The notes under the pieces were generated by a model. That model made no database searches, was not told the origin of the DNA, and saw only the letters and a list, made by a program, of their open reading frames with translations. Below, in pieces: positions 1 through 55,256 of a stretch of 64,000 nucleotides of DNA. Both the position numbers and the translations under genes were made by a program. Position 1 is the stretch's first letter. The number at the start of each line of letters is the position of its first letter. Source of the DNA: a phage; sequence record PX915677.1; one strand, given 5' to 3'.

Positions 1-198
1 CCATCAATGCCATCTTTACCATCAATGCCATCTTTACCATCAATGCCATCTTTACCATCAATGCCATCTTTACCATCAATGCCATCTTTACCATCAATGC
101 CATCTTTACCATCAATGCCATCTTTACCATCAATGCCATCTTTACCATCAATGCCATCTTTACCATCAATGCCATCTTTACCATCAATGCCATTAGCG
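1..198. repeat. Perfect 18-bp tandem repeat (ccatcaatgccatcttta), about 11 copies, running off the window start
   Basis: Direct reading of positions 1-198; unit repeats without mismatch; encodes (GIDGKD)n on the minus strand. Confidence 0.95.
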
Positions 199-15757: not shown

Positions 15758-15766
15758 TAATGTATA
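15758..15766 (+). promoter_or_regulatory. TAATGTATA promoter motif (phage sigma factor-type, by recollection of phiEco32 literature)
   Basis: Exact 9-mer 34 nt upstream of start codon at 15800, just after a terminator. Confidence 0.45.
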
Positions 15767-15799
15767 TTCTTTGTCTACATATAACAAGGAGGACAACCT

Positions 15800-16312
15800 A
15801 TGGCAATGCCAGATTTCAGAGGGGCTTTTACATATAACCCAAATACAGGGCATCTTTTCTGGTCTATGAGTAACGTATTCAATAAACAGAAAGGGAAACG
15901 TGCTGGATGTATTAATAATAAAGGATATCGTGTATTAACCTTCAAGAAGAAATCATACCTAGAGCATAAGGTCATAGCTGAACTCTTTCTTCCTAAAGTA
16001 GAAGGGAAGGATTATGTCAACCATAAGAATGGAATAAAAGACGATAACAGGATTGAGAATCTAGAGTGGTGTACTCAACAAGAAAACTGTACACATGCTT
16101 TTGAAACAGGCCTCTCAACACCTAGGAGTCTTGAGGATAACCCTAATTCCAAACTCACTAAAGAGCAAGTTCTCTTTTGTTTGGAGAACTACAAACCGAG
16201 AGATAGAGAGTTTGGAGCTAGAGCCTTAGCTAGAAAGTTTGGGGTCTCTAAAAGCACAATATCTCTCATTACTAAAGGCGTAAACTGGAAGGAGGTTTAT
16301 TATGATGCCTGA
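15800..16312 (+). CDS. HNH homing endonuclease (170 aa)
   Basis: HNH motif region VNHKNGIKDDNRIENLEWCTQQENCTH; inserted between capsid and downstream virion genes. Confidence 0.7.
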   Translation: MAMPDFRGAFTYNPNTGHLFWSMSNVFNKQKGKRAGCINNKGYRVLTFKKKSYLEHKVIAELFLPKVEGKDYVNHKNGIKDDNRIENLEWCTQQENCTHAFETGLSTPRSLEDNPNSKLTKEQVLFCLENYKPRDREFGARALARKFGVSKSTISLITKGVNWKEVYYDA

Positions 16313-44043: not shown

Positions 44044-44052
44044 TATACATTA
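44044..44052 (-). promoter_or_regulatory. TAATGTATA promoter motif, minus orientation, within a near-palindrome
   Basis: Plus strand TTATGTATAGTATACATTA at 44034-44052; 60 nt upstream of start at 43984. Confidence 0.45.
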
Positions 44053-44115: not shown

Positions 44116-44124
44116 TAATGTATA
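44116..44124 (+). promoter_or_regulatory. TAATGTATA motif, plus orientation, pointing into an ORF-free 280-bp region
   Basis: Exact 9-mer; no plus-strand ORF downstream. Confidence 0.3.
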
Positions 44125-47357: not shown

Positions 47358-49202
47358 TTAGTGTGTATGCATCCAGTTAAGTCCAATCTGACAATCAGAT
47401 GCCAGAGGACATTCCATATTCAGATACTCGCCAGCTTTCTTAACACAAAGCTCGGTGTGCTCTTTGAGTTTCTGTACATCATTACGGTTTACTGAGAATT
47501 GACCTTCATCGTGCATATCAATTACCTTAGCACAACGAACCTTATCTTTCTCAATCCACTTGTTAAGGAACATCATAGCATATTTCATAACAACAGCACC
47601 AGCACATTGCAGGAGTGTGTTAAGGGCTTTATGAACCATAACCTTACCAGTGGCATCCCGTCTCATTGTAATCTTACGACCATCAACTCCAATCAAGTAT
47701 CCTTGAGCAGCTTTCTCTGTCATACGATCAATGAGGATTGCAATACATGGGTTCTCTGCTAAGAAACGTGCTCGCATCACTGAACCTTCGTCAGCCCCAC
47801 CACCTACAATTGAACCAAGCTTAGCATCACCAGCACCATAGTTGAATGCGTAGATAAACGTCTTAGCGTTGTCACGAGTAGGAAGACCAGCAAGTTTCTG
47901 GTTGTGGGAGTGGATATCACCTTCAAGGAGAATATCACGATACATAATAGCAGAAGCTAAACCACGTTCTGCCAGAGCTTTCTTAGCTGGGTTGTTCTCT
48001 TCAATTGCCTCAGCAAGCATATCCCTACACTCTTTAATGAGGTAGTGAGCGAGCATACGAAGTTCAAGTCCAGAACCATCATACCCTAAGAATACTTCTT
48101 TACCAGCGGGTATGTAATATTTGTAAGCACCTATAGGTTTATCTTTCTTCCCCGGCTTACCTTTCTCGTAAATTACGTTAGTACCTTTTCGTATATAACA
48201 ACCATCAGGAACAACGTTAGTAATAACGAAAGGACGAGAGTGATCACTGTCTGAGTTATAGTCAGACTCAAACAAACTGCGACACTCGTGACCAAACAGA
48301 CCACGGGAGGGAATATTAACCACGATACGATGTTTGAATCGAAAAGTCGGCGTAGCGCAGCTGTTAGCTTCTGCCGAAAGTTTACCATCTTCGCGTTCCT
48401 TTGCTATGAGTCCACTGATAAGACCTAGCCTGTGAGCCGCTACAACGCGTCTCTTAAGCAAACTTCCGACACTCCCTAGCTCACCCCCTAACCCTTCTTC
48501 AAGAGTCTCCTCGAGGTTTGTAGGAGCTGTAGGCCACTTGTTTGATGTGGCTAGTGCTTTCTTAATCTCATCAAACGTTACAGGATTACGGCGATTAGGG
48601 TTCAACCCCAAACCAAATACGTAAGCCTTCATGTAATTCTTAGTCTTAAACCTGAAATGCTTTTCTAAGAACTTCTTAATATCAGCGTCAACCATCTCGG
48701 CTGTCTGCTTCTGCTTAGCATTGCCTCGCATCCAAGCAGTATACCATGCTTGGTATGTTCCATACTTTCTCATATCTTTCTTAATTTCGAAAGTATTCCA
48801 AGGCTTCTTAGATACGTTAAACTCTGGAGGAAGGAAGCCCTCATCCATAAGAGCTTCTTTAACTCGTGCATCTTTAGATGGGTCAAAGTCTACATATTCG
48901 ACACAGGTGAAAGCTCCACCAATATCTTCTCTCTTCAGCCCAACCCTATCACAATAGGCTTGAGGCCACTTCTGTAAAGCTCCAGACTTCTTAAACGGCT
49001 TCATATAAGTAGAGCCATCTAATCTCATCTTAGGTAAGAGAGGAATCAACTCTCTGTCAATATTAACAATAATCTCTTTAAGGAGGTGAACATACCACCG
49101 AGCATTTCTTCGGTTGAAACTCACTCCGTGCTTTGCTTGCTTAGAGATTATATCAGCGACAGTCATCTCTGTCAAAAATGGAAGAGCGTCCGGGTTGCTC
49201 AC
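47358..49202 (-). CDS. DNA polymerase, family A, polymerase domain only (614 aa)
   Basis: Motif A region LGYDGSGLELRMLAHY, motif B RDNAKTFIYAFNYGAG, motif C VIDMHDEGQF; no exonuclease motifs in this ORF. Confidence 0.85.
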   Translation of the reverse strand: MSNPDALPFLTEMTVADIISKQAKHGVSFNRRNARWYVHLLKEIIVNIDRELIPLLPKMRLDGSTYMKPFKKSGALQKWPQAYCDRVGLKREDIGGAFTCVEYVDFDPSKDARVKEALMDEGFLPPEFNVSKKPWNTFEIKKDMRKYGTYQAWYTAWMRGNAKQKQTAEMVDADIKKFLEKHFRFKTKNYMKAYVFGLGLNPNRRNPVTFDEIKKALATSNKWPTAPTNLEETLEEGLGGELGSVGSLLKRRVVAAHRLGLISGLIAKEREDGKLSAEANSCATPTFRFKHRIVVNIPSRGLFGHECRSLFESDYNSDSDHSRPFVITNVVPDGCYIRKGTNVIYEKGKPGKKDKPIGAYKYYIPAGKEVFLGYDGSGLELRMLAHYLIKECRDMLAEAIEENNPAKKALAERGLASAIMYRDILLEGDIHSHNQKLAGLPTRDNAKTFIYAFNYGAGDAKLGSIVGGGADEGSVMRARFLAENPCIAILIDRMTEKAAQGYLIGVDGRKITMRRDATGKVMVHKALNTLLQCAGAVVMKYAMMFLNKWIEKDKVRCAKVIDMHDEGQFSVNRNDVQKLKEHTELCVKKAGEYLNMECPLASDCQIGLNWMHTH

Positions 49203-49644: not shown

Positions 49645-49929
49645 TCAACCTCTTGGGAATGGCATCAAAAATTCCACAGCAGATTTAATTTCATTATTGA
49701 TTCTTGAATCACGATAAGAGATAAACTTACCTTTACTATCACGTAACATTACATGGGTTCTGGCTGTTTTGTGAGGGAGCAATGTGATACTAGTTGGAAT
49801 GGCATCAATCCCTACAGCGTATTTGTCAATAGTCTTACTTTCAGCCAACAGATAAGACCAAGTACGCGGTTTCTGCTCCGGGCGGTTAGGGTATGTGTCC
49901 CGAATCTGAACCATAGCTAATTTATTCAT
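49645..49929 (-). CDS. Small protein, paralogue pair member A
   Basis: Shares KTARTxVxLRxxxGKFISY...AVExLxPFP with 49931..50185. Confidence 0.55.
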   Translation of the reverse strand: MNKLAMVQIRDTYPNRPEQKPRTWSYLLAESKTIDKYAVGIDAIPTSITLLPHKTARTHVMLRDSKGKFISYRDSRINNEIKSAVEFLMPFPRG

Positions 49930-49930
49930 A

Positions 49931-50185
49931 TTAAACTCCTTTAGGGAATGGGATGAGATTTTCTACTGCAACACGGAAAGATTTTTCTACGTTCTTATTC
50001 TTATAAGAAATGAATTTACCATCAGCACCACGAAGGATTACATTAGTGCGAGCTGTTTTTGGGTTAATCCCAATCATCCGTTCGATGATCTTGTTTGATT
50101 TGTTGTGGTGGTTAGTGAAAGTCCACTTAACAATCTTGCCATCTCTGGTTACATCAAAAATATTTACGATTTTTACAATAGACAT
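49931..50185 (-). CDS. Small protein, paralogue pair member B
   Basis: See 49645..49929. Confidence 0.55.
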   Translation of the reverse strand: MSIVKIVNIFDVTRDGKIVKWTFTNHHNKSNKIIERMIGINPKTARTNVILRGADGKFISYKNKNVEKSFRVAVENLIPFPKGV

Positions 50186-50220
50186 ATTTATTACCTAAGA
50201 AGTTTATTTTGGTTTATATA

Positions 50221-50248
50221 AAAGAAAAGGCCACCCATTTGGGTAGCC
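50221..50248 (-). terminator. Intrinsic terminator (minus strand)
   Basis: GGCTACCC(aaat)GGGTGGCC with one G-U pair, then TTTTCTTT on minus strand. Confidence 0.5.
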
Positions 50249-50253
50249 TCATA

Positions 50254-50571
50254 TTACGATGAGCTTAAAGCTCCTTTGCGTGCTCCAGCTGCTTTTCCAG
50301 CTCGATCACCACTTTTGCCGCCGTTTGAACGGTTTGAGCTGACTGATTCAACACGTAAGTTGCTTGACGCATTAGAGCCTCCAGACTTGACAGCTCGTTT
50401 GTGTCCAACGTCTTTACCTCTGACAGCAGCTTTTCCATCGCGCTTTTCAACGATGCGACGTGCACGGTGGCGCTGAGCATCTCCGCTCTTGCTCCCAACG
50501 CCTGTTTCACCACGGGCAATTGCGGTACGTCTTTCTTGTGCATAATCTCTCTTTCCTACATGATCTGCCAT
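50254..50571 (-). CDS. Highly basic Gly/Ser/Arg/Lys-rich low-complexity protein (105 aa)
   Basis: AAGGAG RBS 7 nt upstream; own promoter motif and terminator; resembles KGG-repeat stress proteins (weak, by eye). Confidence 0.6.
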   Translation of the reverse strand: MADHVGKRDYAQERRTAIARGETGVGSKSGDAQRHRARRIVEKRDGKAAVRGKDVGHKRAVKSGGSNASSNLRVESVSSNRSNGGKSGDRAGKAAGARKGALSSS

Positions 50572-50607
50572 TTAAAACTCCTTAATATATCAGTGTACAC
50601 TAAGGAG

Positions 50608-50616
50608 TATACATTA
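50608..50616 (-). promoter_or_regulatory. TAATGTATA promoter motif, minus orientation
   Basis: Plus strand tatacatta; 37 nt upstream of start at 50571. Confidence 0.45.
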
Positions 50617-50627
50617 TAAGTTACTGT

Positions 50628-51365
50628 TTAAGCTTTCTTTTCCATTGCTTTAACAATCGCCTTACAGAAACCAGAACGAACAATATCATCTGATTCACCA
50701 TCTACAATCTCAGCAAACTCATACAGATCGTGTTCATCAATAAAGTTAGTAGCCCAAGTTAGACCACTCTCGCGACCACGCATATCATGCTGGTTTGTAT
50801 CACCCATACAGAACAATTGAGAGGTTTCTCCCAATCGAGTCATGATGGAGAAGGCTTCATCCTTAGTTGTGTTCTGGAACTCATCAACAATAACAATAGC
50901 ATCATTGAAAGAACGACCACGGAGATATTCCAGAGGTACAAACTCAATGTTACCATTTCCGATTTGGCATTCATAGAATCCCTTACCATATCGCTGAGTA
51001 ATAACATCAATGATAGGCATCAGGTAAGGCTCAAACTTCTCACGCATTCCTCCCGGAAGTAACCCAAGAGAGTTTCCCATGCCAACCGAAGGGCGACTCA
51101 GAATGATCTTCTGAATCTTACCACTCTTCAGTGCATCGATAACCGTGGAAGTGATTACAAAGGTCTTACCACAGCCCGCAGGAGCGTCTGTGAACACAAC
51201 TTGTTTAGTCTTAATAGCATTGAGTAGCTCAGACTGAAACTGGTTCTGAGGGACTACAGGCTTTGCTAAAACCACCTCTTCATACTCTCGCTTACCTTTA
51301 CGAGTAACAAGTGCTTCCCGACGAAGGTCTTTCCGTGATTCTTTCCGTGATTGACGACGACTCAT
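50628..51365 (-). CDS. phoH: PhoH-like ATPase
   Basis: Walker A APAGCGKTF, Walker B IVIVDEFQN, size and pattern typical of phage PhoH. Confidence 0.7.
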   Translation of the reverse strand: MSRRQSRKESRKDLRREALVTRKGKREYEEVVLAKPVVPQNQFQSELLNAIKTKQVVFTDAPAGCGKTFVITSTVIDALKSGKIQKIILSRPSVGMGNSLGLLPGGMREKFEPYLMPIIDVITQRYGKGFYECQIGNGNIEFVPLEYLRGRSFNDAIVIVDEFQNTTKDEAFSIMTRLGETSQLFCMGDTNQHDMRGRESGLTWATNFIDEHDLYEFAEIVDGESDDIVRSGFCKAIVKAMEKKA

Positions 51366-55184: not shown

Positions 55185-55256
55185 AACTCTCTCCTGTAAA
55201 ATACAAATTCTTATTGTACTCTATATACATTTGAGAGTTATCATATCTACTACCAA

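Follow-up and report, generated by a model that had tools for sequence, protein, structure and literature searches.

The 105-aa open reading frame at positions 50254..50571 on the minus strand of the window (the whole 64 000-nt stretch of phage DNA analysed, sequence record PX915677.1) was identified as gene 58 of the phiEco32-like phages, and its product very probably belongs, as far as the fold alone is concerned, to a family of cysteine-free minimal HNH (beta-beta-alpha-metal) nuclease-fold proteins. The expression unit is real, and its gene and promoter are already on record as phiEco32 gene 58 and P58. Added here are the assignment of fold and family, a correction of the reading frame in another phage group and two testable hypotheses, a gate at the ribosome-binding site (RBS) and a packaged nuclease.

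The window represents a phiEco32-like kuravirus, the region being 94–98% identical to phiEco32-like coliphages (genus Kuravirus). The four elements listed in the initial annotation, a promoter motif, a strong RBS, a basic ORF of 105 aa and a terminator, were all found on the minus strand and all exceed chance expectation; the 56-nt gap between a PhoH-like gene (50628..51365) and the ATG at 50571 holds both TAATGTATA and AAGGAG. The predicted protein is 100% identical to phiEco32 gp58 (phi32_58, annotated as 'hypothetical protein'), and SU10 gp56 is the same protein minus one C-terminal Ser. Promoter motif, leader, RBS and terminator are likewise shared with phiEco32 and SU10, as are the neighbours, with PhoH upstream and gp57 through PolA downstream, except that phiEco32 has an additional gene, gp59, between PhoH and P58 which the window lacks. 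Both gp58 and gp56 are 'hypothetical' in public records, and no function, fold or leader hairpin was found for them in the accessible literature. The features of the unit, all on the minus strand, are as follows.

50608..50616, minus strand: P58 promoter element TAATGTATA, for the phage sigma factor gp36 (motif count and literature).
50600..50602, minus strand: P58 transcription start, about 50601 (inferred from two published spacing rules).
50577..50608, minus strand: leader hairpin, with 5' arm 50608-50596 (containing the anti-Shine-Dalgarno sequence CUCCUU), loop 50595-50590 and 3' arm 50589-50577 (containing the Shine-Dalgarno sequence).
50578..50583, minus strand: Shine-Dalgarno (SD) sequence AAGGAG with a 6-nt spacer to the ATG at 50571 (read from the sequence).
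50254..50571, minus strand: coding sequence of 105 aa, orthologue of phiEco32 gp58 and SU10 gp56, mini-HNH family phrog_4590 (PHROG match, identity, codon test, mass spectrometry).
50265..50543, minus strand: overlapping +1-frame ORF of 92 aa, not a gene but a by-product of composition.
50455..50550, minus strand: residues 8-39, conserved basic N-terminal arm with R8, Y10, E13, RGETGxGSxSxD and RHRARR (invariant alignment columns).
50317..50418, minus strand: residues 52-85, putative beta-beta-alpha-Me (HNH) core with H57, N71 and N80.
50257..50316, minus strand: residues 86-105, Gly/Lys/Ala-rich low-complexity basic tail (lowest sequence entropy).
50217..50250, minus strand: intrinsic-terminator-like hairpin and U-tract, starting 4 nt past the stop codon.

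Exact copies of TAATGTATA number six in the window against 0.65 expected, a count reached in none of 100 shuffles; with one mismatch allowed, the motif is not enriched in the window. In phiEco32, six promoters of RNA polymerase carrying the phage sigma factor gp36 have been located experimentally and share the element tAATGTAtA (PMC4331800, PMC8948821, PMC4281155); they precede genes 6, 13, 26, 40, 58 and 68 (PMC4331800, PMC8948821). The element at 50616..50608 is an exact copy upstream of the gene 58 orthologue, where the phiEco32 promoter has been mapped, and the promoter first called here from its motif is the published gp36-sigma middle promoter P58. Transcription from gp36 promoters starts 6–8 bp downstream of tAATGTAtA (PMC8948821), and a 2025 structural paper centres the promoter core AATGTA at -11.5 (PMC12276001). 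Transferred from this phiEco32 literature, both spacing rules agree on an inferred P58 start at 50601 ± 1. Between motif and RBS the window has the same sequence as phiEco32, SU10 and Bas89, and a strong SD also precedes the orthologues in other genera.

Further promoter-like elements were seen elsewhere. Two exact copies of TAATGTATA at 44044-44052 (minus strand) and 44116-44124 (plus strand) stand back to back about 70 bp apart, which suggests a divergent pair of phage-sigma promoters. A copy with one mismatch at 55224-55232 (minus strand) is followed by AGGAG and ATG and is probably the gene 68 promoter. The start of the DNA polymerase ORF (its first ~55 nt) contains, at 49147-49175 (minus strand), a sigma-70 promoter of perfect consensus, with TTGACA and TATAAT separated by 17 nt and a TG upstream. 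Salmonella phage SeKF_80 has CTCTAATGTATGG, resembling the kuravirus promoter core, directly after the terminator of its gene 58 orthologue (L009 5340-5350); phages of the 7-11 type have been reported to use a different, bipartite promoter (PMC8948821).

Within the coding region the initial annotation had left room for translation of the overlapping frame 50265..50543. Orthologous genes from eleven loci, representing eight or more genera, were aligned and compared in all frames. In the 105-aa frame, codon positions 1, 2 and 3 showed 0.36, 0.30 and 0.63 differences per site, and amino-acid identity was 0.63 in this frame against 0.26 in each of the others, the +1 frame being conserved no better than the +2 control. 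In five other genera (the Aeromonas, Vibrio, Photobacterium, Cronobacter and Salmonella phages) the +1 frame contains 2–7 stops. It is open in kuraviruses and LUZ24-like phages, and public records carry it as gp26 or as a 'putative membrane protein', but this openness follows from how seldom T occupies codon position 2 (12% in gene 58 vs 27–35% in neighbouring genes), which leaves few possible +1 stops. The protein product itself is on record: mass spectrometry of SU10 identified gp56 (2 peptides, 18.3% coverage) at 10.8 kDa, the mass expected for the 105-aa frame (PMC4281155). This mass and the annotation of gp31 in Pseudomonas phage Pa223 both fit the HNH frame. The 105-aa frame is the real gene, and the chance that the +1 frame is the translated one, as the 'membrane protein' entries of LUZ24 and tf imply, is negligible. 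The window and Bas89 differ at 7, 4 and 24 sites in codon positions 1, 2 and 3; selection on gene 58 thus persists in the phiEco32 clade.

The same comparison bears on the LUZ24 group. What has been annotated as LUZ24 gp26 ('contains transmembrane domain', L002 3968-4279) and as tf gp29 ('membrane protein') is the mini-HNH gene read in its +1 frame, and both phages lack an entry for the conserved frame; in Ka1 both frames are annotated (L004 3971-4279) and in Pa223 the correct one is. That LUZ24 gp26 and tf gp29 annotate the wrong frame is, as far as we found, a new observation, and as a consequence earlier virion proteomics in the LUZ24 group could not have found the mini-HNH protein. A foreign origin of gene 58, considered in view of its GC content (51% vs 42%), was rejected: GC3 is 0.32, as in the neighbouring genes, and the excess stems from amino-acid composition (codon positions 1 and 2).

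The encoded protein has a pI of 11.46, with 25 Lys and Arg residues, 45 Gly, Ser and Ala residues and no Cys, and matches phrog_4590 (annotated as function unknown) with an E-value of 7.7e-41. By tblastn the gene was found in 254 phage records, including about 100 kuraviruses and 105 Pseudomonas LUZ24-type phages, besides Aeromonas, Vibrio, Proteus, Salmonella, Cronobacter, Photobacterium and other phages. An exhaustive profile search returned 315 clusters (50% identity), almost all of which are stand-alone proteins 80–115 aa long. The description of the protein as low-complexity holds for the last ~20 residues only; this basic tail has a pLDDT of about 60, varies in length across the family and is masked by the BLAST filter, so that matches span residues 1-83 only. 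Residues 8-85, on the other hand, form a conserved domain with 25 invariant positions among 35 sequences and a mean column identity of 58%. The suggested likeness to KGG-repeat stress proteins was not borne out, there being no Pfam KGG match at E<=1 for the window protein or for 35 family members.

Two parts of the conserved domain stand out. The N-terminal arm is predicted to be helical (pLDDT 64–83), with R8 present in 72/72 and E13 in 70/72 representatives of the broad family. The C-terminal half carries the motif D/G-H57 ... GGSN ... N71-L ... N80 ... GG. H57 is invariant among the 72 cluster representatives, as it is in the narrower set (35/35), N71 is found in 65 and N80 in 71, the lone exception having His and hence a classical H-N-H arrangement. 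Cysteine is absent from 67/72 clusters and the median pI is 11.0. The residue before H57 is Asp in 49/72, Gly in 10/72 and another residue in the rest; the window protein has G56, with D54 nearby. In DH-type HNH enzymes, the acidic residue directly preceding the catalytic His serves as a metal ligand. The kuravirus protein, having Gly where most members have Asp, could be catalytically weakened.

The fold assignment draws on both profiles and a structural model. Sub-threshold matches to Pfam PF01844 were obtained for 25/35 members and to HNH_3 for 12/35, the best family member scoring 20.6 against the Pfam HNH cut-off of 21.4, and distant relatives pass the cut-offs (P0220, 24.1 vs 21.4; P0203 with HNH_3, 25.8 vs 24.8). 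Matches to the IscB HNH domain in NCBIfam and weak matches to HNH and endonuclease VII PHROGs were also seen. The window protein itself gave no Pfam HNH match at E<=1, the family profile had zero matches to PDB sequences at E<=10, and a Foldseek search against the PDB returned nothing significant. An AlphaFold (AF2) model has a strand-strand-helix core with pLDDT >80 and the beta-beta-alpha-metal topology; the catalytic His at the end of strand 1 corresponds to H57, and N71-L and the helix residue N80 fit the roles of structural and metal-ligand Asn. The (CxxC)2 structural zinc site is absent from the window protein. Such a site is found in many, not all, HNH subfamilies. Judged by sequence, its absence places the family in a zinc-less branch and is compatible with membership of the superfamily. 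The Gme HNH nicking endonuclease (4H9D) and GVE2 HNH (5H0O) are similar in size and fold at 13–15% identity but, unlike the mini-HNH family, hold a structural zinc through four Cys; the family also differs in possessing its own N-terminal arm (R8, Y10, E13, RHRARR), and GVE2-type HNH genes adjoin the terminase gene. No biochemical data for any family member were found in the searchable literature. The complete module was also observed at the C-terminus of ~790-aa proteins on marine metagenomic phage contigs of up to 128 kb (L013 1547-3907; L062 10001-12409; alignment A3), with the catalytic positions invariant (H57 = H744), whereas the N-terminal 700 residues of these proteins have no match to Pfam, PHROG, cultured phage or PDB fold.

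The leader between P58 and the start codon may hold a translational control. An anti-SD sequence, CUCCUU at 50607-50602, is complementary to the SD, and leader RNA that includes the 5' arm is predicted to form a 13-bp stem in which the whole AAGGAG is paired (-14.7 kcal/mol, z -3.3). When the RNA begins at 50602 or 50600, the folding energy is only -2.0 or -1.6 kcal/mol and the SD is left free. Since the predicted P58 start lies exactly at the 3' edge of the anti-SD arm, read-through transcripts of the PhoH operon would leave gene 58 untranslated and RNA initiated at P58 would be active. This masking of the RBS on read-through RNA and its release on P58-initiated RNA is a new prediction from RNA folding. 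The hairpin is kept in 6 kuravirus loci, in which the stretch from motif to RBS is identical or nearly so irrespective of the upstream sequence; it is conserved, but with no covariation. At the other promoter copies in the window CTCCTT is absent after the motif, and in 7-11-like Salmonella phages GGAGG is paired with a different sequence. At 15758-15800 (plus strand), CTTTGT...ACAAGGAGG comes after a copy of TAATGTATA, and its anti-SD/SD pairing, though weaker, resembles that of the gene 58 leader; RBS masking may recur at phage-sigma promoters.

The same arrangement of RBS hairpin and promoter has been documented in phage T4 for I-TevI/II/III, segB, the HNH gene mobE and genes e and soc (PMC2988022). 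There, as predicted for gene 58, a hairpin hides the RBS on read-through RNA and the transcript from a phage promoter lacks the 5' arm (PMC2988022). The two cases differ in phage, sigma factor and promoter class, and the gating here is a prediction; in contrast to the hairpin-gated nuclease genes of T4, moreover, gene 58 is a conserved core gene and not mobile.

[quoted passage not shown] The same element lies 3' of gene 58 in phiEco32 (z -3.7), and terminator-like hairpins follow the orthologues in Vibrio (z -2.9), Salmonella (-2.6) and Cronobacter (-2.0) phages and in LUZ24 (-1.9). In SU10 and Bas89 an extra gene is inserted between the gene 58 stop and the same terminator, and the SU10 copy of the terminator carries a compensatory C-G to U-A change. 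The view of the locus as a self-contained unit held in so far as gene 58 has its own promoter, RBS and terminator. Genes 57-41, however, among them the DNA polymerase gene, have no phage-sigma promoter ahead of them other than P58 (PMC8948821); the terminator is therefore probably leaky, and the unit probably not fully self-contained.

The nucleotides between the gene 58 stop and the terminator are an insertion hotspot, occupied, depending on the kuravirus, by a Cys-rich small ORF or by a gene for a 164-aa HNH homing endonuclease (examples of inserted genes are SU10_055, L003 4372-4665, and Bas89_0051, L011 1809-2303, the latter encoding the homing endonuclease); the same terminator still follows. 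The two genes directly downstream in the window, 49645-49929 and 49931-50185 (minus strand), are mutual paralogues, both matching phrog_6814 (E about 1e-36). Some GenBank records call the 84-aa phrog_6814 gene 'autotransporter adhesin', apparently an artefact of annotation; this label was rejected for gene 58, as it belongs to the downstream gp57-like gene.

Gene 58, a middle gene, belongs to the replication module, and a gene for a family-A DNA polymerase usually lies downstream of it. In cultured phages of six genera the mini-HNH gene is co-oriented with such a polymerase gene within about 3 kb. The same was true of 29/46 IMG/VR loci: the order primase/helicase, exonuclease, mini-HNH, PolA was found in 26/46, and three more have a PolA within about 2.6 kb. 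In a few divergent loci (L052, probably L023) a T7-type terminase gene lies about 3 kb downstream of the mini-HNH gene.

This neighbourhood raises the question of a homing endonuclease, either free-standing or recently domesticated, aimed at the polymerase region. Polymerase genes are a classic homing target. Gene 58 adjoins them and encodes an HNH fold, the hotspot directly downstream receives bona fide HNH homing genes, and the combination of RBS-masking hairpin and late promoter is that of T4 homing endonucleases (PMC2988022). Yet the gene is not sporadic, practically every member of several genera carrying it (254 phage records), and it is listed as common to all eight phiEco32-like phages compared. 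The protein is also strongly conserved (58% mean column identity, 25 invariant positions) and, at about 100 aa, has no extra DNA-recognition domain, all of which makes a homing function quite improbable.

We instead lean towards a composite reading, built from sequence and context, in which gp58 would be a mini-HNH protein that binds phage DNA, nicks or processes it during the middle and late stages of infection and is in part packaged along with it. In mid-infection, RNA polymerase with the phage sigma factor gp36 would start at about 50601. The P58 RNA would lack the CUCCUU arm that masks the SD on PhoH-operon read-through, and gp58 would be translated only once the phage sigma factor is active. 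The hairpin after the stop codon would end or attenuate transcription, making gene 58 the best-expressed gene of the unit. The protein would then bind DNA via its Arg/Lys-rich N-terminal helix and its Gly/Lys tail; H57 would be the general base, N80 together with N71 would act at the metal site, and DNA would be nicked or cut during replication or concatemer processing. Some copies of gp58 would stay on the DNA and be packaged. Nucleic-acid binding, already proposed from composition, seems reasonable for a putative HNH-fold protein with a pI of 11.5.

Evidence for an association with virions comes mainly from Pa223, a Bruynoghevirus. According to one sentence in a preprint, LC-MS of purified virions detected Pa223 gp31, which was not visible in the cryo-EM map. 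Pa223_031 is an orthologue of gp58 (98 aa, 10.9 kDa, pI 11.6, 61% identical, blastp 1e-34), corresponding to the unannotated frame under LUZ24 gp26, and the gene numbers in the Pa223 record agree with the numbering in the paper. It resembles the window protein in size, pI, HNH motif and position in the replication block after an exonuclease gene, and differs in having Asp rather than Gly before the catalytic His. For the kuraviruses, the protein is known from a SU10 preparation that was PEG-concentrated only and that also contained polymerase, PhoH and sigma factor (PMC4281155). An internal or virion protein, as the initial annotation had it, is therefore in keeping with the preprint's report on Pa223, but less so with the place of a middle gene in the replication module and with the impurity of the SU10 preparation. 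With its pI of 11.6, Pa223 gp31 could also simply co-purify on DNA.

The virion data could be read differently, with gp58 as a non-catalytic protein that coats or condenses DNA and is packaged with the genome, its HNH fold serving as a DNA-binding scaffold only. The pI of 11.5 and the basic tails, the preprint's placing of the Pa223 orthologue in purified virions while invisible in the map, the occurrence of SU10 gp56 in a phage preparation and the Gly in place of the usual Asp before H57 in the phiEco32 clade would all suit such a protein, and the strong RBS together with its own promoter and terminator suggest high output. It is difficult, however, to account for the near-invariance of H57, N71 and N80 across 72 clusters and in the ~790-aa fusions unless the protein is catalytic or binds metal, and as a middle gene of the replication block gene 58 stands outside the late structural operon. 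We regard a purely DNA-coating role as unlikely.

An HNH protein that assists packaging, of the HK97 gp74 or GVE2 HNH type, would help the terminase to cut concatemers. Size and fold resemble those of GVE2 HNH and Gme HNH, the preprint associates the Pa223 protein with virions and thereby perhaps with packaging, and the few divergent loci named above (L052, probably L023) lie near a T7-type terminase gene. In phiEco32, SU10, LUZ24 and Pa223, by contrast, the gene is distant from that of the terminase and inside the replication module; the genomes have short direct terminal repeats (about 190-bp in kuraviruses) and no cos ends (PMC9965538), and the (CxxC)2 zinc site typical of the HK97 gp74/GVE2 group is absent. 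Such a terminase-helper role is improbable.

Within the favoured reading of a DNA-processing mini-HNH protein, a more specific and decidedly tentative, rather unlikely idea is that it is the long-sought site-specific nickase of this podovirus lineage, behind the localized single-strand interruptions of tf/LUZ24-type virion DNA and stays bound to the DNA. Being trapped on packaged DNA would explain why Pa223 gp31 is, in the preprint's account, present in virions yet invisible in the cryo-EM map. The nicks would be made during or just before packaging, and kuraviruses would have another nick site or an altered enzyme (G56). In Pa223 (L061) the sequence TACTRTGMC occurs 8 to 0 by strand, as the tf paper predicted for LUZ24-group genomes, the one-strand sites being at 1979, 3120, 5480, 9720, 14583, 20996, 25263 and 29944. 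The window, unlike these LUZ24-group genomes, is not enriched, with 2 copies, one per strand, against 1.9 expected. By tblastn distribution, the nicked T5 and phiKMV-type phages are without the mini-HNH family. A de novo search for nick sites in the window with exact k-mers returned only an 18-bp tandem coding repeat at 1-182, and gapped or 2-fold-degenerate scans were swamped by coding-strand bias, the known site being unranked in the Pa223 positive control. The repeat at 1-182 (minus strand) comprises ten perfect head-to-tail copies of the 18-bp unit GGTAAAGATGGCATTGAT (Gly-Lys-Asp-Gly-Ile-Asp), is clipped by the start of the window and presumably lies inside a coding gene.

These results amount to an advance at the level of annotation. 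They assign a probable fold, that of a zinc-less mini-HNH protein, to a core gene which has been 'hypothetical' in about 250 phage genomes, some of them of therapeutic phages, and they correct a recurrent wrong-frame annotation (LUZ24 gp26, tf gp29). The predicted translational gate is a testable proposal that would tie gp58 synthesis to the phage sigma factor. A candidate for a packaged DNA-acting enzyme is also named and, should the nickase idea prove true, the old question of localized genome nicks would become testable.
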